This document shows positions 1 to 16,383 of a DNA stretch of 64,000 nt, piece after piece. The notes under the pieces are model-generated. The model worked only from the letters and a program-made list of their open reading frames with translations. It did no database searches and was not told the DNA's origin. The translations under genes were made by a program, and so were the position numbers. This DNA is from Dehalococcoidia bacterium (lineage in GTDB: Bacteria; Chloroflexota; Dehalococcoidia; Lucifugimonadales; G963668185): contig OZ253485.1 in assembly GCA_965261935.1 (NCBI GenBank), positions 106,832 through 170,831 on the forward strand. The letters run 5' to 3'. Positions within the stretch are counted from its first letter, which is position 1, and the number at the start of each line of letters is the position of its first letter.

Positions 1-1
1 C

Positions 2-1079: not shown

Positions 1080-1766
1080 TTGAATGACATTGCCGCATGT
1101 GTGGGAAGGCAAGTTGTCATGATCCCCGCGATCGATCCGGAGGCCGACTACAAGGCACTGGTGAAGAGAGGCTACGATGCGTGCGCGAGGGCGTACGATG
1201 GGTCCCGAATCACTGAGCCGGGAACTGAGATACGCGGACTGTCAGACCGCCTGCAAGATGGCGACGCCGTGCTCGATGTTGGCTGTGGCGCTGGCGTCCC
1301 TGTCTCCAGGTGGCTGGCCTCACGCTGCCGCGTCACGGGAGTGGACGTCTCACAAGAGATGGTCCATTTAGCGCGCAGGAATGTACCGACTGGCGATTTC
1401 CTGTGCGCTGACATTATGTCGGTTCGCTATCCTCCAGACAGCTTTCATGCGGTGGTGGCGTTCTACTCCGTATTCCACCTTCCCAGAGAAGAGCACCCGG
1501 ACCTGTTTCGGAGGATCCATCGGTGGCTCAGGCCAGGCGGGCACATGCTGTGCACCCTGAGTTATTGCAATGAAGAGGGTTACACGGAGGAGGACTTCTT
1601 TGGGGCGACGATGTATTGGAGCAACTACAGCCTGGAGGAGTACCTGGAGATACTGAACGAAGTTGGATTCGTGCTGCTTGAGGTATGGTCCACGGCTGAC
1701 GGCTACGAGGAGTCGCCTCAGTATGGCATGGAGGACCATCCCCTGGTCCTGGCGAGAAAACCGTGA
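1080..1766 (+). CDS. Class I SAM-dependent methyltransferase
   Basis: Motif I is LDVGCGAGVP, followed by FHAVVAFYSVFHL and LRPGGHM, typical of the Methyltransf_11/25 fold. The listed start is TTG at 1080. An in-frame ATG at 1119 (MIPAIDPE...) is an equally plausible start. Confidence 0.8.
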   Translation: MNDIAACVGRQVVMIPAIDPEADYKALVKRGYDACARAYDGSRITEPGTEIRGLSDRLQDGDAVLDVGCGAGVPVSRWLASRCRVTGVDVSQEMVHLARRNVPTGDFLCADIMSVRYPPDSFHAVVAFYSVFHLPREEHPDLFRRIHRWLRPGGHMLCTLSYCNEEGYTEEDFFGATMYWSNYSLEEYLEILNEVGFVLLEVWSTADGYEESPQYGMEDHPLVLARKP

Positions 1767-1940: not shown

Positions 1941-3005
1941 ATGCCCAACTATGAACATCTGAAGAACCGCTTGGACCAGGGTGACGTGATCATCCTGGAT
2001 GGGGCAATCGGGACCGAGCTCCAGACAATGGGTGCCCCCATGGACCCGGCATCGTGGTGCGGCCCGGCCAACTACACGCACCCGGCAACCGTCCGCCTAA
2101 TGCATCAGCGCTACATCCGGGCGGGGGCAGACATCATAACCACCAACACGTTCAACACCATACGCCCTGCGCTGGAGGCGTCCGGTTACACCGACAAGGT
2201 GAGGGAGATAAACACGCGCGCAGTCGACGCGGCGATCGAAGCCAGAGACCGGGTTGCTGGCGATAGAGACGTTTACATCGCCGGCTCTATTGCGTGCCGG
2301 ACGCCCGTTCGCGACTCCAGGACCGGCACGCTGCAGGGTGGCACCGGCTACGGCTACGGCGCCAGCTTCTCGGCGCAGGAGTTACGAGCGTACGTAGACG
2401 AACAGGCCGAGGTCCTGGCCGAGTCCGGGGTTGACTTCTTTCTGATTGAGAACATGTGGGCCGACAACGAGTCCAGGGCGATTTCTACCGAGGCAGCCAA
2501 GGCCACGGGCCTGCCGGTCTGGGTGGCGTTCACAGCCTCAATGGCGCCGGACGGCCAGACCGTCAGGATGGACTTCGGAGGCACCCGCAACGCCTATAGC
2601 GGAGGCATGGGGATGCCTCTGTGGACTTCCGACTGGCGCCCGATCAACCATGAAATGACACTGGCGGAAGGCATGGCGGAAATCATCAGGCTGGAGCCGG
2701 ATGTGCTGGGCGTATTCCACGCTAGGATAGCCGCCACTACTGAGGCGCTGCGTGTCATGCTCGCGCAATGGTCCGGCCCCGTTGTTGCCTATCCTGACTC
2801 CGGTAGGGGGGACTTCATAGAGACCTGGCGCGACGCCAGCCTGACCAATGAAGAGTCTCCGGAGGACCTGATGCATGAGTCCGCCAAGTGGGTGGAAATG
2901 GGAGCACAGGTGATAGGCGGCTGCTGCGGGTTCGGCGCCGACTACATCGAGCCACTGCGCGGTGGCCTGCCGGGCCGCATCCCATCGCCGCGAGTAGCCG
3001 CGTAG
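1941..3005 (+). CDS. Homocysteine S-methyltransferase family protein (Hcy-binding domain; BHMT/MmuM-like)
   Basis: N-terminal ILDGAIGTELQ and C-terminal VIGGCCGFGADYIEPL (zinc-binding GGCCG signature). Full-length 354-aa ORF. Confidence 0.85.
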   Translation: MPNYEHLKNRLDQGDVIILDGAIGTELQTMGAPMDPASWCGPANYTHPATVRLMHQRYIRAGADIITTNTFNTIRPALEASGYTDKVREINTRAVDAAIEARDRVAGDRDVYIAGSIACRTPVRDSRTGTLQGGTGYGYGASFSAQELRAYVDEQAEVLAESGVDFFLIENMWADNESRAISTEAAKATGLPVWVAFTASMAPDGQTVRMDFGGTRNAYSGGMGMPLWTSDWRPINHEMTLAEGMAEIIRLEPDVLGVFHARIAATTEALRVMLAQWSGPVVAYPDSGRGDFIETWRDASLTNEESPEDLMHESAKWVEMGAQVIGGCCGFGADYIEPLRGGLPGRIPSPRVAA

Positions 3006-3143: not shown

Positions 3144-4367
3144 CTACTCTGCGCTTGCGCCGGCAGCCTTCAGCGTGTCCTCAACCCAGCGGTTGAACCA
3201 GTACGGCCCCGTTTCCTGGCGCGCAAACACGCTCTGGTTATGATGACGGCGTCCGCTCTCGATGCCCGACTGCTGCCACTCCACATTCTGCGCGTCCTGC
3301 AGGTTTGTGATCTGCCATAGCTCGTAGGCCCTCTTGGCATCGAAGTCGTCGCGCTCCATTGTCTCCGGCTCGAACAGGTAGTCCAACGTCAGTTGAAGCG
3401 TTGTCGGGCCCGTCGGAAGAAGCCGCTGCGTGTGCACGAAGTCTGGGTGCGACCTTATGAATAGGCTGGGTCGCATGATCGTGCCGTCCCTCGGGGTGTT
3501 CAGCTCCCTCTCGGTGAGCGTGCTAATCGGCGGTCCGCTGAGTTGGCCGTCCATCGTCCACGTTTTGCCGCCAGGTATGATGTCCGCCCCTCCGGAGAGC
3601 GACATCGTGTCGCCGCCGGACGATCTCCACTCCGGGTCCTGGCGAACGTCCGTTAGGCCCTTGGAGAAAATAGGCACCAGGCTGATCAGCTCCGGGTGAA
3701 CTGAAGGGCAGTGGAAACATTCCAGAAAGTTCTCGAACCACAGTTTCCAGTTCGCCTTTAGCTCAGCAACGTAGCGAAAGCCCAGCCGCAGGTCTTCCAG
3801 CCGGTAGTTCTTGAGCCTCTCCGGCGCGTCGCCGAGTGCGTCCCCCAGGGGCTCGGCCCGGTCACCGGCCAGGTTCACGAACACGAATCCGCCCCATTCA
3901 CCAACGGCTACGTCGTACAGTGAGTAGTCTTTCATTTCGAAGTCGGCAGACTCTAGCTGGTGCGGCGTCGCGATCAGGTCCCCCTCCAGCGAGTAGGTCC
4001 ACGCGTGGTACGGACAGACGATGGAGCCGCCTTCGAAGCGGCCCTCGTCCTGCGTGCACAGTATCGAGCCGCGGTGCCGGCACGTGTTGTGGAACGCTCG
4101 GACGTTGCCCCGCAGGTCCCTGGTTACGACGAGGTTCTGCCCGCCGATTGTGACGACCTTATAGTCCCTGGGAGAGGCCACCTCTTCCGAGCGACACGCG
4201 AAGATCCACATGCCGTACCAGAAGACGTCGAGCTCTTTGCGGTAGTGTTCCGGGTCGTAGTGCCAGCGACTAGGGAAGCTCTTGCCTGTCTCGTCGAGCA
4301 ACAGCGTTGGCCGACGCTCCGCGCTAACAGAAGTGGCTAGGTTTTCCAGCTTTGATTCCGAGTTCAA
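3144..4367 (-). CDS. Rieske [2Fe-2S] non-haem-iron oxygenase alpha subunit, paralog 1 (GbcA/CntA/Stc2-like)
   Basis: CRHRGSILC...CPYHAWTY Rieske motif. NWKLWFENFLECFHCPSVHPEL mononuclear-iron motif. The listed 602-aa ORF (to 4952) is a read-through of the out-of-frame 3' end of the upstream paralog. The most plausible start is the TTG at 4365-4367, which overlaps the TGA of paralog 2 and has GGAG about 10 nt upstream. The start is uncertain by a few codons. Confidence 0.85.
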   Translation of the reverse strand: MNSESKLENLATSVSAERRPTLLLDETGKSFPSRWHYDPEHYRKELDVFWYGMWIFACRSEEVASPRDYKVVTIGGQNLVVTRDLRGNVRAFHNTCRHRGSILCTQDEGRFEGGSIVCPYHAWTYSLEGDLIATPHQLESADFEMKDYSLYDVAVGEWGGFVFVNLAGDRAEPLGDALGDAPERLKNYRLEDLRLGFRYVAELKANWKLWFENFLECFHCPSVHPELISLVPIFSKGLTDVRQDPEWRSSGGDTMSLSGGADIIPGGKTWTMDGQLSGPPISTLTERELNTPRDGTIMRPSLFIRSHPDFVHTQRLLPTGPTTLQLTLDYLFEPETMERDDFDAKRAYELWQITNLQDAQNVEWQQSGIESGRRHHNQSVFARQETGPYWFNRWVEDTLKAAGASAE

Positions 4368-5599
4368 GGAGTGCTTGCTCCGTTCATCTTCTCCTGCACC
4401 CACTGGTTGAAGGCGTTGGGCCCCGTCTCCTGTATCGCGAACACGCTGCGATCGTGGACCCTGCGCCCGCCCTCGATGCCCGCCTGTTGCCATTCCACGT
4501 TTTGCGCGTCCTGCTGGTTCGTGATGTGCCACAGCTCGTACGCGCGCTTGGCTTCGAAGTCGTCGCGCTCCATCGTTTCCGGCTCGAACAGGTAGTCCCA
4601 CGTCAACTGGAGCGTGTTCGGACCGGTCGGCAGCAGACGCTGCGTGTGGACGTAGTCCGGGTGCGTGCTCATGAAAAGGCTGGGCCGCAGCACCGTACCG
4701 TTCACCGGATGCATGAGCTCCTGTTCGGTGAGCGTGCTGATCGGCGGGCCGCTCAGCTTGCCGTCCATCGTCCACGTCATGCCGCCTGGGATGATGTCCG
4801 CACCCACCAGCCTCATCGACTCTCCGCCGCTTGTCCGCCACTCCGGGTCCTGCCGCACATCCACGAGGCCCTTGGCATAGATCGGAACGAGGTTGATCAG
4901 TTCCGGGTGGACCTGCGGGCAGTGGAAGCACTCCGTGTAGTTCTCGAACCACAGCTTCCAGTTTGCCTTGAGTTCCGCGACGTACCGGAAGCCGAGGCGC
5001 AGGTCCTCCAGCCGGTAGTTACTGAGTCTCTGCGGCGCGTCGCCCAGCGCGTCTTCCAGCGGCTCCGCACGGTCGCCAGCGAGGTTCACGAACACCAGGC
5101 CGCCCCATTCGCCCACGGCCACGCCGTACAGCGAGTAGTCTTTCTTGTCGAAGTCGGCCGACTCCAGCTGGTGCGGTGTCGCGATCAGATCGCCCTCCAG
5201 CGAGTATGTCCACGCGTGGTACGGGCAGACTATCGATCCGCCCTCGAACCGTCCGGCGTCCCGTGTGCACAGGATGGAGCCCCGGTGCCGGCACGTGTTA
5301 TGGAACGCTCGGACGTTGCCCTTAAGATCCCGGGTGATGACGACGTTCTGGTCGCCAATGGAGACAACCTTGTAGTCCCTGGCCGAGGCGACTTCCTCGG
5401 AGCGGCACGCGTAGATCCACATGCTGTACCAGAAGATATCGAGTTCCTTCCGGTGGTGGTCGGGGTCGAAGTGCCAGTGGTTCGGGAAGCTCTTCCCCAT
5501 GCCTTCCAGCAGCTCCAGTGGCCGAATCGACGCGCTTGAAGACCGCACCTCGATCTGGTCGCCATAGACGGTGCCACAGCAATCGCTCTGCTGCGTCAT
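4364..5599 (-). CDS. Rieske non-haem-iron oxygenase alpha subunit, paralog 2
   Basis: CRHRGSILC...CPYHAWTY; NWKLWFENYTECFHCPQVHPEL; 411 aa. Closest by eye to paralogs 1 and 8 (VNLAGDRAEPL segment). Confidence 0.9.
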   Translation of the reverse strand: MTQQSDCCGTVYGDQIEVRSSSASIRPLELLEGMGKSFPNHWHFDPDHHRKELDIFWYSMWIYACRSEEVASARDYKVVSIGDQNVVITRDLKGNVRAFHNTCRHRGSILCTRDAGRFEGGSIVCPYHAWTYSLEGDLIATPHQLESADFDKKDYSLYGVAVGEWGGLVFVNLAGDRAEPLEDALGDAPQRLSNYRLEDLRLGFRYVAELKANWKLWFENYTECFHCPQVHPELINLVPIYAKGLVDVRQDPEWRTSGGESMRLVGADIIPGGMTWTMDGKLSGPPISTLTEQELMHPVNGTVLRPSLFMSTHPDYVHTQRLLPTGPNTLQLTWDYLFEPETMERDDFEAKRAYELWHITNQQDAQNVEWQQAGIEGGRRVHDRSVFAIQETGPNAFNQWVQEKMNGASTP

Positions 5600-5644
5600 T
5601 CGTGTACCTCCCTTGGTCTTCCCCCTGCCCCTGGCGTTTCGCGG

Positions 5645-6862
5645 TTACGAATCGCGACTGATCACTACTTGCCCCGCGGCTCCCATGGTCTCCATCACCC
5701 ACTGGTTGAAATGGTGCGGCCCAGTCTCCTGAGGCACGAACACGCTGTGCTCGTGGTGCTTGCGGCCGCCCTCGATGCCGGCCTGCTGCCACTCGACGTT
5801 TTGCGCGTCCTGCAGGTTGGTGATGTGCCAGAGCTCGTATGCCCGCTTGGCGTCGAAGTCGTCACGCTCCATCGTCTCCGGCTCGAACAGGTAGTCCCAC
5901 GTGAGCTGCACCGTGGTCGGGCTCGTGGGGATCATCTGCTGCGTGTGCACGTAGTCCGGGTGCGCGATGAAGAAGAGATTTGGCCTGAGCTGCATCCCGG
6001 TGATGACGCTGTTCGCCTCCTCTTCCGTCAGTCCGCTGAACGTGGGGCCGCTGAGCTGGCCGTCCATCGTCCACGTCTTGCCGCCCGGTATGATGTCCAT
6101 GACGTGAAGCAGCATCGTCTCGCCGCCGGAGGTCCTCCACTCCGGGTCCTGCTGGACGCCGCTCAGCCCCTTGGAAAATATCGGCACAATGTTGACGAGC
6201 TCAGGGTGCACCTGCGGGCAGTGGAAGCACTCGGTGAAGTTCTCGAACCAGAGCTTCCAGTTCGCCTTGATCTCCTTCACGTAGCGAAAGCCCAGCCTGA
6301 GTCTCTCCGGGTGGTAGTTATTGAACTTGAGGGGAGTGTCTCCCAGCGTCTCTTCGAGCGGATCGGCCGCTCCCGGCGTGAGATTGACGAACACGAAGCC
6401 GCCCCACTCGCCGACTGCCGCTTCGTAGAGTGAGTAGGCTTTCATGTCGAAGTCGGCCGACTCAAGCTGGTGCGGCGTGGCGATCAGGTTCCCTTCCAAC
6501 GAGTACGTCCACGCGTGGTACGGGCAGACGATGGAGCCGCCCTCGAAGCGGCCCTCGTTCTGCGTGCACAGGATCGACCCTCGGTGCCGGCACGTGTTGT
6601 GGAAGGCCCTGAGGTTGCCCTTCAGGTCCCTTGTCAGGACGATGTTCTGCCCGCCGATCGCGACGACCTTGTAATCCCTCGGCGAGGCCACCTCTTCCGA
6701 CCTGCAGACGTTGATCCACATGCGGTACCAGAACGCCTCCAGCTCCTTCTGGTAGTGCTCGGAATCGGAATGCCAGCTGTTCGGGAAGCTGGGCTCCAGC
6801 TTGTCAAGCGTGTTGCGCCTGTGCTGGTAGGTGTACAGTTGCATCTCAGGGACCTCCTTCAC
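5645..6862 (-). CDS. Rieske non-haem-iron oxygenase alpha subunit, paralog 3
   Basis: Same Rieske and Fe-site motifs (ENFTECFHCPQVHPEL). AAGGAGG Shine-Dalgarno sequence upstream of the ATG at 6862. Confidence 0.9.
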   Translation of the reverse strand: MKEVPEMQLYTYQHRRNTLDKLEPSFPNSWHSDSEHYQKELEAFWYRMWINVCRSEEVASPRDYKVVAIGGQNIVLTRDLKGNLRAFHNTCRHRGSILCTQNEGRFEGGSIVCPYHAWTYSLEGNLIATPHQLESADFDMKAYSLYEAAVGEWGGFVFVNLTPGAADPLEETLGDTPLKFNNYHPERLRLGFRYVKEIKANWKLWFENFTECFHCPQVHPELVNIVPIFSKGLSGVQQDPEWRTSGGETMLLHVMDIIPGGKTWTMDGQLSGPTFSGLTEEEANSVITGMQLRPNLFFIAHPDYVHTQQMIPTSPTTVQLTWDYLFEPETMERDDFDAKRAYELWHITNLQDAQNVEWQQAGIEGGRKHHEHSVFVPQETGPHHFNQWVMETMGAAGQVVISRDS

Positions 6863-6895
6863 TAACGCCGCGCACTCCGTTCGGCCCGCTGCCGC

Positions 6896-8103
6896 CTAGC
6901 CGTCGCGCCTGAGCACCTCATGTCCCGCGGACTCAATGATGTCCATGACCCAGTTGTTGAAATGGTGCGGCCCCTTCTCCTGTGGCACGAAGACACTGTA
7001 GTCGTGGTGATTGAGGCTGCTCTGGATCCCCGCCTGCTGCCACTCGACGTTCTGCGCGTCCTGCAGGTTGGTGATTTGCCACAGCTCGTACGCGCGCTTC
7101 ACGTCGAAGTCCTCACGCTCCATCGTCTCCGGTTCGAACAGGTAGTCCCACGTTAGCTGCACCGTGGTCGGGCTCGTGGGAATCATTTGCTGTGTGTGCA
7201 CGTAGTCGGGGTGCGCGATAAAGAAGAAGTTTGGTCGGAGTTGCATCCCTGTGACGGCGCGGTTGGCCTCTTCTTCCGTCAGGCCGCTGAATGTCGGACC
7301 GCTGAGTTTGCCGTCTATCGTCCACGTCCTGCCGCCGGGGATTATGTCGGAGCCGCCGTGCAGCACCATCGTGTCGCCTCCGGAAGGCTTCCACTCCGGG
7401 TCTTCGCTGACTCGTATAAGGCCCTTGGCATAGATCGGCACAATGTTGATGAGCTCCGGGTGGACCTGCGGGCAGTGGTAGCATTCCGAGAAGTTCTCGA
7501 ACCACAGCTTCCAGTTCCCTTTGATTTCATGCACGTACCGGAAGCCCACCTTCAGCCTTTCCGGGTGGTAGTTCTTGAACTTCTCAGGGGTGTCTCCCAG
7601 TGCCGCTTCGAGCGGCTCGGCCTCCTCGGGCGTGAGGTTCACGAACACGAAGCCGCCCCATTCTCCGACCGCCGCCTCGTAAAGCGAATAGTCTTTCATG
7701 TCGAAGTCGGCCGACTCCAGCTGGTGTGGCGTGGCGATCAGCCTGCCCTCCAGCGAGTACGTCCACGCATGGTAAGGGCAGACGATGGACCCGCCCTCGA
7801 AGCGCCCCTTCGCGTGTCCGTGCAGAGAATCGAGCCCCGGTGCCTGCAGGTGTTGTGAAACGCCCTCAGGTTGCCTTTGAGGTCCCTTGTTAGGACGAGG
7901 TTCTGATCGCCGACGCTGACAACCTTATAGTCCCTGGGCGAGGCGACCTCGTCCGATCTGCAGACGTTGATCCACATCCTGTACCAGAATGCGTCCAGAT
8001 CCTTCTGGTAGTCCTCGGGATCGTAGTGCCAACTATTGGGGAAGCTCGGCTCCATCTTGTCGAGACTGCGTTGACTGGTCTCGTACGAAAACAACTGTGT
8101 CAT
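6896..8103 (-). pseudogene. Rieske oxygenase alpha subunit, paralog 4, disrupted by a frameshift
   Basis: The N-terminal ORF 7738..8103 matches the paralogs up to CRHRGSILCT, then runs out of frame (DTRRGASRAG...). The other frame resumes with AKGRFEGGSIVCPYHAWTYSLEG and continues into ORF 6896..7699. Between the CT codons and GRFEGG there are 11 nt, where the paralogs have 9 (QDE). This is a +2/-1 indel near 7811-7820. Confidence 0.85.
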
Positions 8104-8169
8104 GCGTGTCTCCTCTCTGCTCGCTGGATATCCCGCTCACGCCGCGCACTCCGTTCGGCCCGCTGCCGC

Positions 8170-9381
8170 CTAACGGTCGCGCCTGAGCACCTCGTGCCCC
8201 CCGGCATCCATGACCTCCATGACCCACTGGTTGAACTGGTGCGGACCTGTCTCCTGCGGCGTGAACACGCTGTAGTCGTGGTGCTTGCTGCCGCCTTCGA
8301 TGCCTGCCTGCTGCCACTCGACGTTCTGGGCGTCCTGCAGGTTCGTGATGTGCCACAACTCGTAGGCGCGCTTTGCGTTGAAGTCCTTGCGCTCCATCGT
8401 CTCCGGCTCGAACAGGTAGTCCCACGTTAGCTGTACCGTAGTCGGGCTCGTGGGGATCATCTGCTGCGTATGCACGTAGTCGGGGTGCGCAATGAAGAAG
8501 AAGTTTGGCCGGAGTTGCATCCCATTGATAACACTGGTGGCCTCCTCTTCCGTCAGGCCGCTGAACGTCGGGCCGCTGAGTTGGCCGTCCATGGTCCAAG
8601 TCCTACCGCCGGGGATGATATCGGAGCCGCCGTGCAGCACCATCGTGTCCCCGCCGGAAGGCTTCCACTCCGGGTCTTGATTGACTCGACCAAGCCCCTT
8701 CGAAAAGATCGGCACGATGCTGATGAGCTCCGGATGGACCGTCGGGCAGTGGTAGCACTCCGAGAAGTTCTCAAACCACAGTTTCCAGTTCCCCTTGATC
8801 TCATGCACGTACCGGAAGCCCACCTTCAGCCGTTCCGGGTGGTAGTTCTTGAACTTCTCCGGCGTGTCTCCCAGCGCCGCTTCGAGCGGCTCGGCCGGGT
8901 CCGGGGACAGGTTTACGAACACGAACCCGCCCCATTCTCCGACAGCCACGTCGTAGAGCGAGTAGTCTTTCATTGCGAAGTCGGCCGACTCAAGCTGGTG
9001 CGGCGTGGCGATCAGCTTCCCCTCCAGTGAGTACGTCCACGCGTGGTACGGGCAGACTATCGATCCGCCTTCAAACCGGCCCTCGTCTTGCGTGCACAGG
9101 ATCGAGCCACGGTGCCGGCACGTGTTGTGGAACGCTCTCAGTTTGCCCTTGAGGTCCCTCGTGAGGACGAGGTTCTGATCGCCAATGCTGACAACCTTGT
9201 AGTCTCGCGGCGAGGCGATTTCGTCCGACCTGCAGACGTTGATCCACATGCGATACCAGAAGGCTTTGAGTTCCTTCTGGTAATGCTCAGGATCGTAGTG
9301 CCAGCTATTGGGGAAGCTCGGCTCCAGCTTGTCGAGCCTCCTGATCCTCATCCTGCTCTCGTACGAGTACAACTGCGTCAT
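8170..9381 (-). CDS. Rieske non-haem-iron oxygenase alpha subunit, paralog 5
   Basis: CRHRGSILC...CPYHAWTY; NWKLWFENFSECYHCPTVHPEL; 403 aa. Confidence 0.9.
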   Translation of the reverse strand: MTQLYSYESRMRIRRLDKLEPSFPNSWHYDPEHYQKELKAFWYRMWINVCRSDEIASPRDYKVVSIGDQNLVLTRDLKGKLRAFHNTCRHRGSILCTQDEGRFEGGSIVCPYHAWTYSLEGKLIATPHQLESADFAMKDYSLYDVAVGEWGGFVFVNLSPDPAEPLEAALGDTPEKFKNYHPERLKVGFRYVHEIKGNWKLWFENFSECYHCPTVHPELISIVPIFSKGLGRVNQDPEWKPSGGDTMVLHGGSDIIPGGRTWTMDGQLSGPTFSGLTEEEATSVINGMQLRPNFFFIAHPDYVHTQQMIPTSPTTVQLTWDYLFEPETMERKDFNAKRAYELWHITNLQDAQNVEWQQAGIEGGSKHHDYSVFTPQETGPHQFNQWVMEVMDAGGHEVLRRDR

Positions 9382-9449
9382 GCAGGTCTCCTTTCTGTTC
9401 GCTGCGTCTCCTGCTCACGCCGTGACGAAGGTGCCCGGACGGCCCGGGT

Positions 9450-10661
9450 CTAGCCGTCGCGCCTGATTACCTCGTGTCCGGCGGCCTCCATGATCTCCAT
9501 GACCCAGTTGTTGAACTGGTGCGGCCCGGTCTCCTGCGGCACGAACACGCTGTACTCGTGGTGCTTGCTGCCGCCCTCGATGCCCGCCTGCTGCCACTCG
9601 ACGTTCTGCGCGTCCTGAAGGTTCGTGATGTGCCAAAGCTCGTAGGCTCGCTTGGCGTCGAAGTCCTCGCGCTCCATCGTCTCAGGCTCGAACAAGTAGT
9701 CCCATGTCAGTTGGACCGTCGTCGGGCTGGTGGGAATCATCTGCTGAGTGTGGACGTAATCCGGATGCGCCACAAAGAAGAAGTTCGGTCTTAGCTGCAT
9801 GCCGCTGATGACGCTGTTCGCCTCCTCTTCCGTAAGGCCGCTGAACGCAGGGCCGCTGAGCTGGCCGTCCATCGTCCACGTCCGGCCGCCAGGAATGATG
9901 TCCGAGCCGCCGTGCAGCAGCATCGTTTCTCCGCCGGACGGCTTCCACTCCGGGTCCTGCCTGACGTTGCCCAAGCCCTTCGAGTAAATCGGCACAATGT
10001 TGATGAGCTCCGGATGGACCTGCGGGCAGTGGAAGCACTCGCTGTAGTTCTCGAACCACAGCTTCCAGTTGGCCTTGATTTCATGCACGTATCTGAACCC
10101 AAGCTTGAGCCTCTCCGGGTGGTAGTTCTTGAACTTCACGGGAGTGTCCCCCAAGGCCTTCTCCAGGGGCTCTGCCTCTTCCGGCGCCAGGTTCACGAAG
10201 ATGAATCCGCCCCATTCGCCGACCGCCACGTCGTACAGCGAGTAGTCTTTCATGTCGAAGTCGGCCGACTCGAGCTGGTGCGGCGTGGCGATCAGCTTCC
10301 CTTCCAGCGAGTACGTCCACGCGTGGTACGGACACACGATGGAGCCGCCCTCGAACCGCCCCTCGTCCTGCGTGCACAGGATCGAACCGCGGTGTCGGCA
10401 CGTGTTATGGAACGCTCTCAGGTTGCCCCGCAGGTCCCTGGTGACGACGATGTTCTGCTCGCCAATGGATACGACCTTGTAGTCCCGGGGCGAGGCGACC
10501 TCATCCGACCTGCAGACGTTGATCCACATCCGATACCAGAACGTCTCCAGTTCCTTCCTGTAGTGTTCCGGGTCGTAGTGCCAGCTATTCGGGAAACTGG
10601 GCTCCATCTCGTCAAGGACAAGCTTCCTGTTCCGCCTTTGTTCGTAGCTGTAGACCTGCAT
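9450..10661 (-). CDS. Rieske non-haem-iron oxygenase alpha subunit, paralog 6
   Basis: Same motifs (ENYSECFHCPQVHPEL); 403 aa. The 5' third is identical at DNA level to paralog 7. Confidence 0.9.
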   Translation of the reverse strand: MQVYSYEQRRNRKLVLDEMEPSFPNSWHYDPEHYRKELETFWYRMWINVCRSDEVASPRDYKVVSIGEQNIVVTRDLRGNLRAFHNTCRHRGSILCTQDEGRFEGGSIVCPYHAWTYSLEGKLIATPHQLESADFDMKDYSLYDVAVGEWGGFIFVNLAPEEAEPLEKALGDTPVKFKNYHPERLKLGFRYVHEIKANWKLWFENYSECFHCPQVHPELINIVPIYSKGLGNVRQDPEWKPSGGETMLLHGGSDIIPGGRTWTMDGQLSGPAFSGLTEEEANSVISGMQLRPNFFFVAHPDYVHTQQMIPTSPTTVQLTWDYLFEPETMEREDFDAKRAYELWHITNLQDAQNVEWQQAGIEGGSKHHEYSVFVPQETGPHQFNNWVMEIMEAAGHEVIRRDG

Positions 10662-10732
10662 CTGATAACCTCCGTCGCCGGCTCGACCGCTTTTCGTACG
10701 ATTGCCACTCTTTCCTTTACGTCATTCCGTGC

Positions 10733-11938
10733 TTACGAATCGCGCCTCCGCACCGTGTGCCCGGCCGACTCCATGACCTCCATCACCCAGTTGTTGAACT
10801 GGTGCGGTCCCGTCTCCTGCGGTACGAACACACTGTACTCGTGGTGCTTGCGGCCGCCCTCGATTCCCGCCTGCTGCCACTCGACGTTCTGCGCGTCCTG
10901 CAGGTTCGTGATGTGCCACAGCTCGTACCCGCGCTTGGCATCGAAATCGTCGCGCTCCATCGTCTCAGGCTCGAACAGGTAGTCCCACGTCAGTTGCACC
11001 GTCGTCGGGCTCGTGGGAATCATCTGCTGAGTGTGGACGTAGTCCGGGTGCGCAACGAAGAAGAAGTTCGGCCTGAGCTGCATCCCACCGATGGTGCAGT
11101 TCGCCTCTTCTTCCGTCAGGCCGCTGAACGCGGGGCCGCTGAGCTGGCCGTCCATCGTCCACGTCCTGCCGCCCGGTATGATGTCCGAGCCGCCGTGCAG
11201 CAGCATCGTTTCCCCGCCGGACGGCTTCCACTCCGGGTCCTCCCTGACGTCGCCTAGTCCCTTGGAGTAAATCGGCACAATACTGATGAGCTCGGGGTGG
11301 ACCTGCGGGCAGTGGAAGCACTCGCTGTAGTTCTCGAACCACAGCTTCCAGTTCGCCTTGACCTCATGGACGTACCGGAAACCCAGCTTAAGCCTCTCTG
11401 GGTGGTAGTTCTTGAACTTCAGCGGAGTGTCACCCAGCGACTTTTCGAGCGGCTCGGCCTCTTCCGGCGTGAGGTTAACGAACACGAAGCCGCCCCACTC
11501 GCCGACTGCCGCCTCGTAAAGTGAGTAAGCTTTCATGTCGAAATCGGCCGACTCAAGCTGGTGCGGCGTGGCGATCAGCTTCCCTTCCAGCGAGTACGTC
11601 CACGCGTGGTACGGACACACGATGGAGCCGCCCTCGAACCGCCCCTCGTCCTGCGTGCACAGGATCGAACCGCGGTGTCGGCACGTGTTATGGAACGCTC
11701 TCAGGTTGCCCCGCAGGTCCCTGGTGACGACGATGTTCTGCTCGCCAATGGATACGACCTTGTAGTCCCGGGGCGAGGCGACCTCATCCGACCTGCAGAC
11801 GTTGATCCACATCCGATACCAGAACGTCTCCAGTTCCTTCCTGTAGTGTTCCGGGTCGTAGTGCCAGCTGTTCGGAAAGCTGGGTTCCAGCTTGTCCAGC
11901 ACCACGCGCGATCTCTGGTCGTAGTCGTACACTTGCAT
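10733..11938 (-). CDS. Rieske non-haem-iron oxygenase alpha subunit, paralog 7
   Basis: Same motifs; 401 aa. Confidence 0.9.
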   Translation of the reverse strand: MQVYDYDQRSRVVLDKLEPSFPNSWHYDPEHYRKELETFWYRMWINVCRSDEVASPRDYKVVSIGEQNIVVTRDLRGNLRAFHNTCRHRGSILCTQDEGRFEGGSIVCPYHAWTYSLEGKLIATPHQLESADFDMKAYSLYEAAVGEWGGFVFVNLTPEEAEPLEKSLGDTPLKFKNYHPERLKLGFRYVHEVKANWKLWFENYSECFHCPQVHPELISIVPIYSKGLGDVREDPEWKPSGGETMLLHGGSDIIPGGRTWTMDGQLSGPAFSGLTEEEANCTIGGMQLRPNFFFVAHPDYVHTQQMIPTSPTTVQLTWDYLFEPETMERDDFDAKRGYELWHITNLQDAQNVEWQQAGIEGGRKHHEYSVFVPQETGPHQFNNWVMEVMESAGHTVRRRDS

Positions 11939-11992
11939 CTCTGGGACCTCCTGCCTGTTCTGGGCCGCGTGTTGCTATTTGCTGGCAAGTAG

Positions 11993-13171
11993 TTAGATTG
12001 CCCCGGCCTCCTTGAGCTTGTCCGCCACCCACCTGTTGAATCGCCACGGTCCCTGTTCGTTAGATACGAACACGCTCTCCTTGTGCACGTTTCGCCCGGC
12101 CATGAGCCCGGCCTGCTGCCACTCCACGTTCTGGGCGTCCTGCAAGTTCGTGATGTGCCATAGCTCGTATGCGCGCTTGGCGTCGAAGTCCTCGCGCTCC
12201 ATCGTCTCCGGCTCGAACAGGTAGTCCCACGTTATCTCGACCGTGGACGGACTCGTGGGCAGCATGCGCTGTGTGTGAACGTAGTCCGGGTGCATGTTCA
12301 GGAAGAAGCTCGGTCTGAGCATGCCGCCGTTCTGCGGACTGTCCAGCTCGTGTTCATTGAGGCCGCTGAGCGCCGGTCCGCTCAACTGACCGTCCATGGT
12401 CCAGGTCTTCGCGCCGGGGATGATGTCCAGCTCCCTGACCATCGTGTCGCCGCCGGTGCCTTCCCAGTCGCGAGCGAAGCCCCCGTCCAGCGCCAGTGCA
12501 TAGATCGGCACAACGGCGCACAGCTCCGGGTGGACCTGCGGGCAGTGGAAGCACTCCATGTAGTTCTCGAACCACAGCTTCCAGTTCGTCTTGATCTCGG
12601 CTACGTACCTGTATCCCAGGCGCAGGTCCTCAGTACGGTAGTTGGCGAACCGTTCCGGGAAGTCGCCGAGTACGTTTTCCAACGGCTCGGCCTTATCCCC
12701 CGCCAGGTTCACGAACACGAAGCCGCCCCACTCGCCGACGGCCACGCCGTACAGCGAGTAGTCTTTCATGGCGAAGTCGGCCGACTCCAGCTGGTGTGGC
12801 GTCGCGATCAGGCCGCCCTCCAGCGAGTAGGTCCACGCATGGTACGGGCAGACAATCGACCCGCCTTCGAAGCGGCCCTCGTCCTGGGTGCACAAGATGG
12901 AGCCCCGGTGCCGGCAGGTGTTGTGGAACGCGCGGACGTTGCCCTTGAGGTCCCTGGTGACAATGACGTTCTGATCGCCTATGGAGACGACTTTGTAGTC
13001 CCTCGGTGAGGCAACGTCCTCAGAGCGGCACGCGTACATCCACATGCTGTACCAGAAGACGTCCAATTCCTTCCGGTGGTGCTCCGGGTCGTAGTGCCAG
13101 TGGTTGGGGAAGCTCGATTCCAGGTGGCCGATGGCTGCTGGACTGTTAGCAAATGACTGCCGCGTTAGCAT
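11993..13171 (-). CDS. Rieske non-haem-iron oxygenase alpha subunit, paralog 8
   Basis: CRHRGSILC...CPYHAWTY; NWKLWFENYMECFHCPQVHPEL. Divergent segment after the Fe site (VVPIYALALDGGFARDWEGTGG). Confidence 0.9.
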   Translation of the reverse strand: MLTRQSFANSPAAIGHLESSFPNHWHYDPEHHRKELDVFWYSMWMYACRSEDVASPRDYKVVSIGDQNVIVTRDLKGNVRAFHNTCRHRGSILCTQDEGRFEGGSIVCPYHAWTYSLEGGLIATPHQLESADFAMKDYSLYGVAVGEWGGFVFVNLAGDKAEPLENVLGDFPERFANYRTEDLRLGYRYVAEIKTNWKLWFENYMECFHCPQVHPELCAVVPIYALALDGGFARDWEGTGGDTMVRELDIIPGAKTWTMDGQLSGPALSGLNEHELDSPQNGGMLRPSFFLNMHPDYVHTQRMLPTSPSTVEITWDYLFEPETMEREDFDAKRAYELWHITNLQDAQNVEWQQAGLMAGRNVHKESVFVSNEQGPWRFNRWVADKLKEAGAI

Positions 13172-13211
13172 GGCGCGTTACCTCCGCTCGGGTGCAGTTT
13201 CGGCTATGTTA

Positions 13212-13251
13212 GACGAAAACGCGCGGCCCCGCCATGCGTCGGCGGGGCCGC
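13212..13251 (-). terminator. Candidate Rho-independent terminator downstream of paralog 9
   Basis: On the minus strand: GCGGCCCCGCC - GACGCAT - GGCGGGGCCGC (11-bp perfect GC stem, plus-strand 13223-13233 / 13241-13251), followed by GCGTTTTCGTCT. Confidence 0.6.
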
Positions 13252-13279
13252 TGTTCAGTCCTTTCGGATGTGCAGTCGG

Positions 13280-14500
13280 CTAGTACCTGGTGTCCCCGCC
13301 GTAGTCCGGGTCGGTCTCCTCGCCGAGCCGCTCCAGCACCCACTGGTGGAAGCGCCAGGGCCCAATCTCCTGGGGCACGAAGGTGCAGTGATCGGCCTCC
13401 CGGCTGGCCAGTCCCTCCTGCTGCCACTTGCAGTTCTGGGCGTCTTGCCGGTTGGTGATGTCCCACAAATCGACCATCTTGTCGATGTCGAAGTCCGGCC
13501 TCTCCATGGAAGACGGCTCGAACAGCCAGTCGTACACCATCTGTACGCTGGTCGGGCCTGTGGGCAGCATCCGGTGAGTGTGAATGAAGTCAGGGTGGAT
13601 GTTGATAAACAGGTTGGGCCTGAGCACGGACGCAGTGTAGCCGGTGCTCCGTTCCTCCTCGGTGAGGTCGCGGAAGAAGGGCACGTTCGTGGTGCCGTCC
13701 ATGGTGAGGGTCACCTTGCCGGGCGCCAACCGCTGCGTTCGGCTCATCGTCTGGCCGCCCGTAGGCTCGAAGTCCTTGCCTTGCTCCATTAGCATCATGC
13801 CGTCGTCTTTCTGACGGTCGCTGAGCAGTCCCTCGCCGTAGATCGGGATCACGTCACACAACTCCGGATGGACCCCCGGGCAGTGGAAGCACTCCGAGAA
13901 GTTCTCGAACAGCAGCTTCCAGTTGGCCTCCACGTCGATGACGATCCGCTTGCCCAGCTTCAACTCTTCCATGTGGTAGTTCTGAAGTCGGGCAGGGGTG
14001 TTGCCCAGCGTATGCTCGAGCGGTTCCGCGTTAGCGCCGGCGAAATTCACGAAGATGTACCCGGCCCACTCTCCCACGGCCACCCCGTACAGCGAATACT
14101 CGTTCATGTCGAAGTCTGCCGACTCCAACTGATGCGGCGTGGCGATCAGGCTGCCCTCCAGCGAGTAGGTCCATGCGTGGTAGGGGCAGACCACCGAACC
14201 GCCCTCGAACCGGCCCGACTCCTCCGTGCACAGGATGGATCCGCGGTGCCGGCAGGTGTTGTGGAACGCGCGCAGCACACCCTTGAGGTCCCTGGTGATG
14301 ACGCAGCTCTGTTCGCCGACGGTGAAGACTTTGTAGTCCCTGGGCGACGCCACCTCCTCGGCCCGGCAAGCGTACACCCACATGTCGTACCAGAAAACGT
14401 CCAGTTCTTTTTGGTGCTGCTCAGGATCGTAGAAGTAACGGTATGGAAGTCCGTTCTTGATCTGCCTGAGTATCGATGGACCCGCAAATTGAGCCTGCAT
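13280..14500 (-). CDS. Rieske non-haem-iron oxygenase alpha subunit, paralog 9 (most divergent)
   Basis: CRHRGSILC...CPYHAWTY; NWKLLFENFSECFHCPGVHPEL. It has a longer insertion after the Fe site (GEGLLSDRQKDDGMMLMEQGKDFEPTGGQTMSRTQRL). Confidence 0.9.
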   Translation of the reverse strand: MQAQFAGPSILRQIKNGLPYRYFYDPEQHQKELDVFWYDMWVYACRAEEVASPRDYKVFTVGEQSCVITRDLKGVLRAFHNTCRHRGSILCTEESGRFEGGSVVCPYHAWTYSLEGSLIATPHQLESADFDMNEYSLYGVAVGEWAGYIFVNFAGANAEPLEHTLGNTPARLQNYHMEELKLGKRIVIDVEANWKLLFENFSECFHCPGVHPELCDVIPIYGEGLLSDRQKDDGMMLMEQGKDFEPTGGQTMSRTQRLAPGKVTLTMDGTTNVPFFRDLTEEERSTGYTASVLRPNLFINIHPDFIHTHRMLPTGPTSVQMVYDWLFEPSSMERPDFDIDKMVDLWDITNRQDAQNCKWQQEGLASREADHCTFVPQEIGPWRFHQWVLERLGEETDPDYGGDTRY

Positions 14501-14685: not shown

Positions 14686-15960
14686 ATGACAAGCCGGTCC
14701 CAATCCCCGGCCCAGAGGGCTTCTCAGCCGCGGCGAAGGCTGTTCGTAGCCTTCAGCATAAAGGGCTATGTCTGGTTCTGGGCCAGCATGTTCTGGTCGG
14801 CCGCCGGGATGAGCGGCCGGATGCTCGCCCAGGGCTGGCTCGTCGTCGACCTGACGGACGAGAGCGGCGCCAGCGCGCCGCTATGGCTCGGCATCCTTTC
14901 TGCGGTCCGCGCCATCGGCAGCACTTTCCTGTCGCCCATCGGTGGCGTAATTATCGACAGATTCGACCGCCGCTTACTGCTGGTCGCGCTGCAGACGTTC
15001 AACATGACCACCAGCCTTGTGCTGGGGACCCTCGTTATCATGGATTGGGTGCAGATGTGGCACCTGATAGTCATCTCGCTGCTTCAGGGCATCATCATGG
15101 CTATCAGCATGCCGACCCGCAACGCGGTCACGTTCGACCTCGCGGGTCGCGAGAGCCTGATGAATGCGATGTCCGCCAACTACCTGGCTTCGGACGTCAT
15201 GCGCATAGCGAGCCCTGTGATTGCCGGTGTGATCACGGACCTTGCGGGCACCGGCGGGGCGTTCTTCTTCCTCGCAAGCTCGTTCATCGTCGCAACCTAC
15301 TGCATTCTTCGGCTGCCGCGCACTGAAATGAAGCCCAGACCCCGCCGCTCCGTTTGGTTAAGCCTGACGGAAGGCGCCTCTTACGCATGCCGCAACAGGA
15401 ACATGCGAATGATCATGGTCATGGACATACTCATGTCATGCTTCGCTTACAGCTCGCAACTCATGCTTCCCTTCTTCGCGAGGGAGGTCCTGGGTGTCAG
15501 CGCGACGGGGCTAGGTGTCCTAATGGGAGTTATGGGTGTCGGGTCCCTGATGACCGGCGTGCTTATCGCAAGCTCCGCCAGCCTGAAGCCCACGCACGCA
15601 CGTTACCTGGTGGCCTCCCTGGGATACTCGGCGATGGTGATCGGGTGGGCCGTGTCGCCGTGGTTCGCGCTTGCGGCCTTGTTCCTCTTCCTGAATGGAA
15701 TGGCCTCGGGCGGGTTCAACTCACTGTCTTCTTCCCTCATACAGGTTGTTTCTTCTGAGGAGTACCGCGGAAGGATGATAGGTTTGCAGGGCCTCACCTG
15801 GGGAACGATGTCACTCGGAGGAATGGCCATAGGGGGCGCTGCCACCTTCGTCAGCATAACCTTTGCGCTGTCGGGGCTCGCGGCCATTCCCGCTCTCCTT
15901 TCGGTGGTCTATCTTGTCAGGGCGAAGCAGTACTCTACCGATCCCGAGGATCAGGGCTGA
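14686..15960 (+). CDS. MFS transporter
   Basis: 424 aa with multiple hydrophobic spans. The N-terminal FxxxFxxxxxxWFWASMFWSAAG... layout is typical of MFS_3/EntS-like transporters. Confidence 0.8.
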   Translation: MTSRSQSPAQRASQPRRRLFVAFSIKGYVWFWASMFWSAAGMSGRMLAQGWLVVDLTDESGASAPLWLGILSAVRAIGSTFLSPIGGVIIDRFDRRLLLVALQTFNMTTSLVLGTLVIMDWVQMWHLIVISLLQGIIMAISMPTRNAVTFDLAGRESLMNAMSANYLASDVMRIASPVIAGVITDLAGTGGAFFFLASSFIVATYCILRLPRTEMKPRPRRSVWLSLTEGASYACRNRNMRMIMVMDILMSCFAYSSQLMLPFFAREVLGVSATGLGVLMGVMGVGSLMTGVLIASSASLKPTHARYLVASLGYSAMVIGWAVSPWFALAALFLFLNGMASGGFNSLSSSLIQVVSSEEYRGRMIGLQGLTWGTMSLGGMAIGGAATFVSITFALSGLAAIPALLSVVYLVRAKQYSTDPEDQG

Positions 15961-16047: not shown

Positions 16048-16383
16048 ATGCCGGCAGGACAAGTCTTCGCGATTGCCGACCTCATGGCGCAGCAGAGCGA
16101 GAGCGAAGGGTTCTGGTACGAGTTTCTCCGTGTACCGAGGATGTACTGCGGCCTCTACGTGTTGCCCGCCGGGACCAAAGACCCACAGCAGCCCCACGCG
16201 GACGACGAGGTCTACTACGTCGTGAAAGGGCGCGGCGTCATACAGGTGGAAGGGGACAACATGCCGTTGCAGGAGGGCAGCGTCGCGTACGTCGCCGCGG
16301 ACGCCAAGCACCACTTCCACTCCATCACCGAAGACCTGATCCTATTAGTCTTCTTCGAGGCATCCGGAAGCTCGGAAGGGTAG
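16048..16383 (+). CDS. Cupin domain protein
   Basis: 111 aa. PHADDEVYYVVKGRG...EGSVAYVAADAKHHFHS is a cupin_2 two-motif pattern. Confidence 0.75.
   Translation: MPAGQVFAIADLMAQQSESEGFWYEFLRVPRMYCGLYVLPAGTKDPQQPHADDEVYYVVKGRGVIQVEGDNMPLQEGSVAYVAADAKHHFHSITEDLILLVFFEASGSSEG

Follow-up and report, generated by a model that had tools for sequence, protein, structure and literature searches.

A conserved tandem array of alpha-only Rieske oxygenases in a small Dehalococcoidia clade, with probable divergence for multi-substrate oxidation

Nine Rieske oxygenase genes, with products of 392-411 aa, were found back-to-back on the minus strand (3144-14500) of the window, the whole 64-kb stretch of Dehalococcoidia DNA that was analysed. 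Eight are intact and c4 is frameshifted, a count made in an earlier sequence-only reading and confirmed by open reading frames and Pfam matches. The group V quaternary-ammonium oxygenases are represented by CntA, CMO, OxyBAC, GbcA/BmoA and Stc2, and the nine genes are probably best explained as a vertically inherited tandem array of alpha-only Rieske monooxygenases, an uncharacterised lineage within or beside that group, whose copies diverged for multi-substrate oxidation. Since the copies are old, are each under selection and vary mostly near the predicted substrate pocket, the array looks like a multi-substrate oxidation toolkit. The array and its flanking genes comprise:

1..928, plus strand: SoxA-family flavoprotein, 3' part of 536 aa (Pyr_redox_2 and SO_alpha_A3/BFD)
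1080..1766, plus strand: class I SAM-dependent methyltransferase
1941..3005, plus strand: Zn-type homocysteine S-methyltransferase (PF02574), convergent with c1
3144..4367, minus strand: c1, 407 aa, TTG start; an identical 407-aa product is called in the relative L082
4364..5599, minus strand: c2, 411 aa, from Pfam matches and alignment
5645..6844, minus strand: c3, 399 aa; an equal 399-aa product is called in L082
6896..8103, minus strand: c4, frameshifted pseudogene
8170..9381, minus strand: c5, 403 aa, the copy used for the AlphaFold2 model
9450..10661, minus strand: c6, 403 aa, 93% identical to c7
10733..11938, minus strand: c7, 401 aa, member of the c3-c7 subgroup
10273..10586 (c6), minus strand: 314-nt tract identical in sequence to 11556-11869 (c7)
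11993..13171, minus strand: c8, 392 aa, separate lineage
13223..13251, minus strand: terminator-like hairpin between c9 and c8, 12-bp stem with 11 GC pairs, then a T-run, GCGTTTTCGT
13280..14500, minus strand: c9, 406 aa, the most divergent paralog, 55-57% identical to the other copies
14686..15960, plus strand: MFS_3 / DHA3-type transporter, divergent from c9, adjoining the array in every relative
16048..16383, plus strand: small cupin, 111 aa, kept beside the transporter

A GGAG-type ribosome-binding site precedes every copy, and the genes from c8 through c1 are separated by 23-71 nt or overlap; the TTG start of c1 overlaps the stop of c2 (TTGA), which suggests translational coupling of the two. 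Copies c3-c7 are 80-93% identical to one another in the alignment, and the regular spacing attributed to them was borne out (1241, 1278, 1280 and 1277 nt from start to start), the true start of c3 being ATG 6844 and not GTG 6862. The conserved spacer reported for the same copies, 31 nt long, is complete only between c5 and c4 and between c4 and c3, and partial between c6 and c5. Copies 1, 2 and 8 had been placed in one subgroup, a grouping that did not hold, as c8 forms a lineage of its own and what it has in common with c1 and c2 looks ancestral. Both peculiarities noted for c9 are present, namely the hairpin that separates it (13251-13223) and an insertion, found to be of 10 aa within the loop after the Fe site, and c9 is probably its own transcription unit. 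An assembly artefact was ruled out as the source of the array by identical gene order in at least five independent assemblies.

All eight intact copies match PF00355 (E 5e-19 to 4e-21) and PF00848 (E 1e-37 to 1e-42) in a Pfam profile search. The Rieske ligands C88-x-H90-x19-C110-x2-H113 and the catalytic Fe ligands H211-x4-H216 and D350 (2-His-1-Asp; c5 numbering) occur in all nine copies, the motif counts given earlier being correct on alignment. The nine copies and 65 homologs all retain, without exception, H211, H216 and D350, a bridging Glu and, flanking the first His, a Cys-x-x-Cys pair. The bridging Glu, exemplified by CntA E205 (PMC7948474), and the Cys pair are the defining marks of group V (PMC7948474, PMC10952381). 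The top NCBIfam model was GbcA/BmoA (NF058607), with 183-205 bits against an equivalog cutoff of 670, matching c2 and c9 in full length and c5 and c8 in two stretches; the runners-up, anthranilate and benzoate dioxygenases, reached at most 96 bits over the N-terminal half only. In the PDB sequence search Stc2 was best (8e-46 to 9e-47), followed by 3n0q and CntA, with all alpha/beta dioxygenases behind. The AlphaFold2 model of c5 (pLDDT 91.2) likewise retrieved Stc2 as the top Foldseek match (E 6e-33, TM 0.76), then 3n0q and CntA, with TPADO and NagG afterwards. Clustering with the classical alpha/beta aromatic dioxygenases, named earlier as an outcome that would speak against the GbcA/CntA/Stc2 assignment, was thus not seen. 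Stc2, 3n0q and CntA are the closest characterised relatives, but the array proteins form a separate clade (bootstrap 92%), weakly placed with CntA-type rather than Stc2-type enzymes at 55% versus 17% bootstrap, and are about 22-30% identical to any characterised enzyme. Public labels are generic, e.g., 'aromatic ring-hydroxylating dioxygenase subunit alpha', and IMG names some 50%-identical metagenomic homologs 'glycine betaine catabolism A'. Judged by these matches, the array proteins are alpha-only (beta-subunit-less) Rieske oxygenases and none of the named enzymes.

Stc2, the stachydrine (proline betaine) demethylase of Sinorhizobium meliloti (PDB 3vca, 4qup-4qur), and its structural-genomics relative 3n0q are the top matches in both sequence (E about 1e-46) and fold. 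Stc2 is alpha-only like the array proteins and has the Rieske and 2-His-1-Asp ligands, bridging Glu and Cys-x-x-Cys in common with them. Nevertheless, identity is only 26-30%; Phe or Tyr stands at the CntA Y203 position in place of the Asn that Stc2 and 3n0q have there and that marks the Stc2/GbcA subgroup; the lid loop is of another length and sequence; the residues mapped to the pocket are not the same (NLDHTTIT in Stc2 against, e.g., FLIIWYHT); and Stc2 is a single gene. CntA/YeaW, the carnitine monooxygenase (PDB 6y8j; E. coli b1802), is a group V alpha3 enzyme with the same bridging Glu and Cys pair, and is weakly favoured as sister group of the array clade. Its Y203 makes a pi-cation contact with the trimethylammonium group and is matched by an aromatic residue in the array, whereas its pocket residues F216, Y225, F247, F258, N270 and F319 are mostly not kept, identity is about 22% and the match is confined to the N-terminal half.

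Synonymous divergence between paralogs is high (dS 0.42-1.46, dN/dS 0.10-0.39) and uniform over the gene length, which indicates that the Rieske domain has been conserved by selection and not by conversion. Orthogroups of c9, c8, c2, c1, c3, c4/5, c7 and c6 recur in related Dehalococcoidia genomes, whose EF-G is 82-89% identical to that of the window, with ortholog dN/dS of 0.05-0.20; these relatives hold 5-11 array copies within an equivalent cassette. The synteny comparison proposed for dating the expansion thus gave conserved orthologs and gene order: the copies are of old date, purifying selection maintains every surviving one, and the array, rather than being unique to the source genome, is conserved across a small Dehalococcoidia clade. 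Turnover was also observed. Compared with the intact 401-aa copy of the 97%-identical relative L082, c4 carries a 2-bp 'AC' insertion at 7816-7817, and 6 of 1208 alignment columns differ (this insertion and four substitutions); c4 is, on this comparison, a recent pseudogene, and its truncated 267-aa ORF is also called in the independent assembly L081. The 314-nt tract of c6 and c7 has come about by recent gene conversion or is an assembly chimera, and the array of one relative contains an insertion sequence.

The divergence had been located after the Fe site and in the C-terminal tail, and the alignment agreed, with 18% and 12% invariant positions, respectively, against 67% in the Rieske core. 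Sites fixed within clades yet differing between them are enriched in the loop after the Fe site (27%) and the beta-sheet region (22%) relative to the Rieske core (3%). Pocket positions were assigned not from 3D distances but by aligning the sequences with YeaW/CntA, in a region of low conservation. The positions aligned with CntA F258 and N270 read, by orthogroup, R/R, V/S, I/I, I/V, Q/N and Y/N; these two positions and the one aligned with Y295 do not vary between genomes in c9, c8 and c7, and hardly vary in the remaining orthogroups. The aligned signatures are FLYNYVDT for c9 (common to its orthologs in five genomes), YLQNWYHT for c8, YLIVWYHT for both c6 and c7, YLVSWYHT for c2 and FLRRLYQT for c1, in which both F258/N270-aligned positions are Arg. 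The suggestion that variable positions lie in the pocket is consistent with this ortholog-conserved divergence of the lid loop and CntA-aligned positions. In the c5 model, however, the lid loop is the lowest-confidence and most surface-exposed part (pLDDT 48 at residues 245-252), so part of its variation may be neutral. A nine-fold specificity was overstated, the signatures suggesting about six pocket classes; c3-c7 are nearly alike at the mapped positions, in keeping with dosage or with partial redundancy among them.

The array belongs to a largely conserved cassette: cupin - MFS - (Rieske)n - homocysteine methyltransferase - SAM methyltransferase - SoxA-like flavoprotein - DUF2461. MFS_3 transporters are better known for efflux than for uptake, and the homocysteine S-methyltransferase resembles MmuM about as much as betaine-homocysteine methyltransferase. 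Whereas cntA/yeaW adjoins its own FNR-type reductase gene cntB/yeaX, no CntB/GbcB/YeaX-type reductase was found in the 64-kb window or within 10 kb of any homolog, nor were gbcB-type reductase or dgcAB genes found near the array. The SoxA-like protein has conserved C394-x-C396 and C450-x4-C455, four Cys typical of a 2Fe-2S site, and this FAD/[2Fe-2S] protein is a candidate electron donor for the array, or may be an amine-oxidase subunit. Of 88 homolog loci, 24 have a SoxB/DAO-like amine oxidase within 10 kb, and in L001 one lies directly downstream of a dispersed Rieske paralog.

It is unlikely that the array copies are ring-hydroxylating oxygenases for aromatic compounds. Annotation pipelines give them generic aromatic-dioxygenase labels, the mapped pocket positions of c3-c7 are hydrophobic, and an aromatic residue at the CntA Y203 position also occurs in classical dioxygenases (Phe in HcaE), but quaternary-amine enzymes are their top matches by sequence, profile and fold alike, and aromatic dioxygenases align mainly via the Rieske half. 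Moreover, the bridging residue is Glu, accompanied by the Cys pair, where classical dioxygenases including HcaE have Asp, and the neighbourhood is one of methyl-group and amine metabolism, with no dihydrodiol dehydrogenase or ring-cleavage gene near the array. Expansions in SAR202 Chloroflexota group VII genomes, of up to 62 COG4638 alpha subunits with few beta subunits, were read as aromatic catabolism (Saw et al. 2020, PMC6946804), which favours the aromatic alternative. They have in common with the array the host phylum and apparently the class (Dehalococcoidia), the many alpha with few or no beta subunits and the general idea that paralog growth widens the usable substrates. Most of the published paralogs carry phthalate-, phenoxybenzoate- or carbazole-type labels, and neither a tandem arrangement nor the group V signature nor orthogroup-level conservation is mentioned in the section of that paper devoted to them (PMC6946804). 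Whether the array was common or already characterised had been raised earlier; it occurs in clade relatives and superfamily expansions are published, but no earlier description of a tandem group V-like Rieske array was found in the literature.

There is little likelihood that the array is mainly a gene-dosage amplification, with one reaction on one substrate and differences due to neutral drift. Dosage-only amplifications are usually young and nearly identical, whereas these paralogs show dS of 0.4-1.5, orthologs of each copy are separately conserved (dN/dS 0.05-0.2), and the signatures of c9, c8, c1 and c2 are distinct and fixed across genomes, with charge changes (two Arg in c1) and the c9 insertion. 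Dosage would account for the close identity of c3-c7, the equal c6 and c7 signatures, the variation of 5-11 copies among relatives with one fresh pseudogene, and a tract suggesting that copies still exchange sequence. In alpha3 Rieske oxygenases the Rieske domain of one subunit feeds the catalytic site of its neighbour, and the paralogs could be subunits of mixed trimers, in which a conserved Rieske domain and interface with varied pockets would give combinatorial enzymes. This is highly improbable: a shared reductase explains the conserved Rieske domain equally well, and no precedent was found in the literature on group V enzymes, although the Rieske core is 67% invariant despite saturated synonymous divergence, the close spacing of c8-c1 suggests co-expression from one operon, and inter-subunit electron transfer is established for CntA (PMC7948474).

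The favoured multi-substrate reading would have the array built by old serial tandem duplications, with birth-and-death turnover continuing through lineage-specific duplications, the frameshift, the insertion sequence and at least one conversion tract. The near-invariant Rieske domain and Fe site indicate conserved, shared electron-transfer machinery, presumably a shared reductase, while the orthogroup-specific signatures would have arisen by divergence of the flexible lid loop behind the Fe-binding helix and of a few positions in the beta-sheet that line the predicted pocket. The enzymes would presumably be trimers, and the most likely reaction would be an NAD(P)H- and O2-dependent hydroxylation beside a positively charged N (or similar) centre, leading to oxidative N-demethylation or C-N cleavage. 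Homology and gene context point to quaternary amines or methylated compounds as the substrate class; the organism may take up from its environment several related small compounds, methylated or of betaine type, whose products would feed amine-oxidase and methyl-group metabolism.

Nine Rieske oxygenase genes, designated c1 to c9, were found in a row on the minus strand at 3144–14500 by ORF listing and translation. Their coordinates are given after correction of two starts, those of c1 and c3:

3144–4367, minus strand: c1, with a TTG start overlapping the c2 stop as TTGA, which fits the 407-aa call in a relative
4364–5599, minus strand: c2
5645–6844, minus strand: c3, with an ATG start giving a 399-aa product, the same call as in a relative
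6896–8103, minus strand: c4, frameshifted
8170–9381, minus strand: c5
9450–10661, minus strand: c6
10733–11938, minus strand: c7
11993–13171, minus strand: c8
13280–14500, minus strand: c9

All eight intact products (392–411 aa) matched the Pfam families Rieske (PF00355, E values of 5e-19 to 4e-21) and Ring_hydroxyl_A (PF00848, E values of 1e-37 to 1e-42). The frameshift recognised in the sequence-only reading was traced to a 2-bp insertion (AC) at 7816–7817, by comparison with the unbroken copy of a relative at 97% identity; outside this insertion c4 differs from that copy at four of 1208 positions, and the truncated ORF is called identically in the independent assembly L081. Within c8–c1 the genes overlap or are separated by spacers of 23–71 nt, each with a GGAG-type ribosome-binding site. 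The hairpin proposed between c9 and c8 is present (12 bp, followed by a T-run), and the 31-nt "conserved spacer" of the same reading proved to be complete in two spacers and not in the others. The Rfam scan of the window returned zero matches, and no sigma-70 promoter was found in a scan of the array, with a count below that of shuffled sequence.

The array proteins are catalytic (alpha) subunits of Rieske non-heme iron oxygenases, with both sites that define the family. The Rieske [2Fe-2S] ligands, C88-R-H90-x19-C110-P-Y-H113 in c5 numbering, are unchanged throughout the nine copies and 65 homologs, and the 2-His-1-carboxylate mononuclear iron site (H211, H216 and D350) is invariant in the same set. 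The earlier spacings, C-x-H-x19-C-x2-H and H-x4-H, were both right when checked on the copies, the Asp lying downstream. Group V, the quaternary-ammonium Rieske oxygenases, is marked by a bridging Glu (E205 in CntA) and not Asp (PMC7948474), and a Cys-x-x-Cys pair by the iron site (C206/C209 in CntA) has been described for "some" of its members (PMC10952381). At CntA position 203, the CntA/CMO/OxyBAC subgroup (Va) has an aromatic residue and the GbcA(BmoA)/Stc2 subgroup (Vb) has Asn (PMC7948474, PMC10952381), the aromatic residue making a pi-cation contact (PMC7948474). Group V enzymes also have no beta subunit, form alpha3 homotrimers and are partnered by an FNR-type FMN/[2Fe-2S] reductase (CntB/YeaX/GbcB), usually encoded adjacently (PMC7948474). 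The bridging Glu (E208) and the Cys pair around the first His (E-C209-x-H211-C212) are invariant in the nine copies and 65 homologs, the classical dioxygenase HcaE having Asp in the column of E208. Position 203 is Phe in c1, c3, c4, c5 and c9 and Tyr in c2, c6, c7 and c8, whereas Stc2 and 3n0q have Asn, which sets all nine copies apart from subgroup Vb; the aromatic residue is also ancestral, HcaE having Phe. Neither the array spacers (23–108 nt) nor the scanned ORFs of the window contained a gene with a beta-subunit domain.

The best curated profile was found to be GbcA (NCBIfam NF058607), with scores of 183–205 bits for c2, c5, c8 and c9, far under its equivalog cutoff of 670 bits, and aromatic dioxygenase models reached at most 96 bits, over the N-terminal half only. 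Against solved structures, sequence comparison placed Stc2 (E ~1e-46), 3n0q and CntA (~1e-32) above every alpha/beta dioxygenase. An AlphaFold2 model of c5 (pLDDT 91.2) matched the fold of Stc2 best (E 6e-33, TM 0.76), followed by 3n0q, CntA, TPADO and NagG. The leading hits by profile, sequence and fold are all group V enzymes. In a neighbour-joining tree the array family formed its own clade in 183 of 200 bootstraps (92%); placement next to YeaW received 55% and next to Stc2 17%, with three references and HcaE as the sole outgroup. Since the Glu and the Cys pair are kept, position 203 is Phe or Tyr and the family forms its own clade, it is filed as a separate lineage that would function like group V, outside every named enzyme. 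Cluster look-up and source annotations gave no specific name for these proteins, and a plasmid tblastn search returned generic "aromatic ring-hydroxylating dioxygenase" labels alone, with identities of 34% or less and no usable GbcA reference.

The nine-gene array is not an assembly artefact, since the same gene order was found in other assemblies. Nine copies, all intact, are present in L082 (245-kb contig), ten intact copies and a 121-aa ORF without a Pfam match in L084 (2.98-Mb genome, ~90% DNA identity), eight copies in L085 (3.22-Mb chromosome OZ220745.1, Dehalococcoidia bacterium) and five to six in L086 (contig), with a transposase-like gene inserted. The EF-G of array-bearing genomes is 82–89% identical to that of the window; in all other genomes, which sources label Chloroflexi or Chloroflexota, identity is at most 69%. 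The array thus marks a single genus- or family-level clade.

Pairwise amino-acid identity among the nine copies was 55–93%, and the paralog pairs gave dS values of 0.42–1.46 and dN/dS values of 0.10–0.39. Orthogroups for c9, c8, c2, c1, c3, c4/5, c7 and c6 were resolved in a tree built on 47 genes of five loci, with lineage-specific extra duplicates in the c6 and c1 groups. The copy c8, formerly grouped with c1 and c2, is a separate lineage. Ortholog pairs presented dN/dS values of 0.05–0.20 at dS values of 0.4–1.4. Read from these divergences, an old array has evolved by birth and death and not by recent amplification. Gene conversion behind the invariant Rieske domain was ruled out: synonymous divergence there (pS of 0.43–0.51) matches the rest of the gene, so the near-invariance is attributed to selection and not to homogenisation. 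The sole pair with a significant identical tract was c6/c7, in which 314 nt of the Rieske domain (codons 26–130) are 100% identical (c6 10273–10586, c7 11556–11869). The c6/c7-type ortholog pairs of L082, L084 and L085 share at most 44–68 identical nt, and the tract, private to the window, arose either by gene conversion in the very recent past or as a window-specific assembly chimera. Separately, c5 (8170–9381) and its ortholog at L084 11281–12492 showed a dS of 0.098, whereas other ortholog pairs of the same genomes range from 0.40 to 0.86; a recent exchange of one copy between the window and L084 lineages is suggested by this contrast.

Pocket divergence was evaluated from sites fixed within, and different between, four deep clades (c9, c8, c1/c2 and c3–c7). 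Such sites make up 3% of the Rieske core; their share rises to 27% in the stretch that follows the Fe helix and to 22% in the beta-sheet region 301–345. In the c5 model, residues 229–277 are predicted as a long coil (pLDDT 48 at 245–252), which fits a flexible lid. The substrate-contact residues of CntA are F216, Y225, F247, F258, N270, Y295, Y315 and F319 (PMC7948474). These were mapped via E. coli YeaW, the offset being verified by residue identities and YeaW aligned to the family; F258, N270, Y295, Y315 and F319 correspond to c5 positions 285, 297, 320, 340 and 346, respectively, by sequence alignment in a divergent region. By this approximate alignment, Y315 is kept as Tyr in c1–c8, Y295 in c9 only and N270 as Asn in c8 and c9, whereas the remaining contact positions differ, so that the array does not carry the contact set of CntA.

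Table. Predicted pocket signatures, read at the CntA-mapped positions plus c5 positions 206, 219 and 344
c9 orthogroup: FLYNYVDT
c8 orthogroup: YLQNWYHT
c2 orthogroup: (Y/F)LVSWYHT
c1 orthogroup: FLRR(L/W)YQT
c3–c5: FL(I/V)IWY(H/Q)T, except in the two most distant c3 orthologs, L085 g5 (FLVIWYDT) and L086 g3 (YLITWYHT)
c6/c7: YLIVWYHT, with one Met in L084 g4

Each signature was identical, or nearly so, in every genome bearing that orthogroup. Because of this near-constancy within orthogroups, the signatures support about six predicted pocket classes and not nine.

The array lies in a conserved cassette with the order cupin, MFS_3 transporter, Rieske genes, homocysteine S-methyltransferase, SAM methyltransferase, 536-aa SoxA-family flavoprotein and DUF2461. 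The cupin and the transporter adjoin the array in every relative, and both methyltransferases are missing from L086; in L083 and L084 the flanking sequence is truncated. At L084 19799–20865, the array-side homocysteine S-methyltransferase is probably a pseudogene, since it is split into two ORFs (207 and 148 aa). The context features in the window are as follows:

1–928: SoxA-family flavoprotein, partial (whole gene at L082 18449–20059), with a Pyr_redox_2 domain and a BFD/SO_alpha_A3 region
16048–16383: cupin, 111 aa, adjoining the MFS transporter
53180–58239, minus strand: methyl-cycle cluster (53–58 kb)
53180–54388, minus strand: SAM synthetase MetK
54496–55764, minus strand: SAH hydrolase AhcY
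56012–56947, minus strand: PfkB-family kinase, adenosine-kinase-like
57376–58239, minus strand: PNP/MTAP-like phosphorylase

The cupin was considered as a DMSP lyase and dropped (PF16867 scored 22.7 bits, its cutoff being 27, and DddK matched only at E 2e-3), its better matches being generic cupins and gentisate dioxygenase. The flavoprotein adjoins the array wherever the flank was available (L081, L082, L085 and L086), and its four Cys (C394-x-C396 ... C450-x4-C455) are conserved in three genomes. Given the Pyr_redox_2 domain and the BFD-like region with these four Cys, it would have what a one-protein FAD/[2Fe-2S] reductase needs and is a candidate electron donor. Alternatively, it could be an oxidase subunit, since its neighbour in L086 is a SoxB-like amine oxidase and not the methyltransferases. 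The 64-kb window yielded no FNR-type reductase, ferredoxin or beta subunit, nor did tblastn detect a YeaX-type reductase within 10 kb at the 88 homolog loci among the matches listed; the gene for an FNR-type reductase could lie in another part of the genome. Among the matches listed, 24 of the 88 loci have a SoxB/DAO-like gene within 10 kb, and a Rieske-type ferredoxin (HcaC-like) occurs near family members in 23 actinobacterial loci. At L001 9869–12388 (OZ220745.1), a dispersed paralog is directly followed by a DAO/SoxB-like flavoprotein. The cassette, the SoxB-like neighbours and the methyl-cycle genes point towards the metabolism of amines and methyl groups and away from aromatic ring cleavage.

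Elsewhere in the window, mobile and defence-type genes were found at 37329–38513, 42842–43408 and 44217–47183: an IS481-like transposase, a single ORF in which a BrnT toxin domain is joined to a BrnA antitoxin domain, and an Eco57I-like restriction-modification methylase of 988 aa by a low-GC stretch (0.53, 46–48 kb). The minus strand at 30176–35176 encodes a MoxR AAA ATPase, DUF58, two VWA/BatA proteins and then a trypsin-like peptidase. GC falls to 0.548 at 28000–30000, against ~0.61–0.64 around it, with a 287-aa ORF (28695–29558) without a Pfam match.

On balance, the array is rather probably an alpha-only Rieske monooxygenase set with shared electron delivery and diversified pockets, oxidising several related methylated or betaine-type compounds. 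The alpha-only enzymes would be putatively trimeric, one electron-delivery system would be common to all copies, and the varied predicted pockets would accept several methylated or betaine-type substrates, by N-demethylation or C–N cleavage. Aromatic degradation is the published reading of SAR202 expansions (PMC6946804), but the residue signatures and the gene context both speak against aromatic ring hydroxylation by these copies, which is unlikely. To a similar degree we doubt that the array serves pure gene dosage, an explanation plausible within the c3–c7 group only, and assembly of the paralogs as mixed trimers seems very improbable. A bolder form of the favoured monooxygenase reading, to be entertained only tentatively, is that the array and the SoxA-like FAD/[2Fe-2S] flavoprotein form a new Rieske system, in which one unconventional reductase serves about six pocket variants, possibly in mixed trimers, that strip methyl groups or amines from an entire class of betaine-like compounds.

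Rieske oxygenases in general, group V chemistry and COG-level (COG4638) paralog expansion in SAR202 are already known. In literature searches, neither the tandem array nor sponge/SAR202 betaine oxygenases were found described specifically. The same searches found no description of a conserved head-to-tail array of 5–11 group V-like genes with orthogroup-specific pocket signatures, of a sequence lineage apart from both named subgroups, or of the usual reductase being absent with a SoxA-like FAD/[2Fe-2S] protein adjoining.

The ability of SAR202-type Chloroflexota to attack hard-to-degrade dissolved organic matter is explained foremost by paralog expansion, an account built on gene counts and generic labels. 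The array is a compact test of this idea, with six predicted pocket variants on one conserved scaffold, orthologs under selection, and an adjoining conserved transporter and candidate reductase. Were the array enzymes to act on betaines or other methylated amines, some of what has been published as "aromatic dioxygenase" expansion would have to be moved to methylated-nitrogen cycling, and new specificities would be added to the small group of CntA, GbcA and Stc2, which is important for osmolyte turnover and trimethylamine production. Should the new Rieske system prove true, uncultured Dehalococcoidia would be able to use methylated dissolved organic nitrogen, a capacity not currently credited to them. 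The array overturns nothing; it makes the broadening of substrate range by paralog expansion directly testable.
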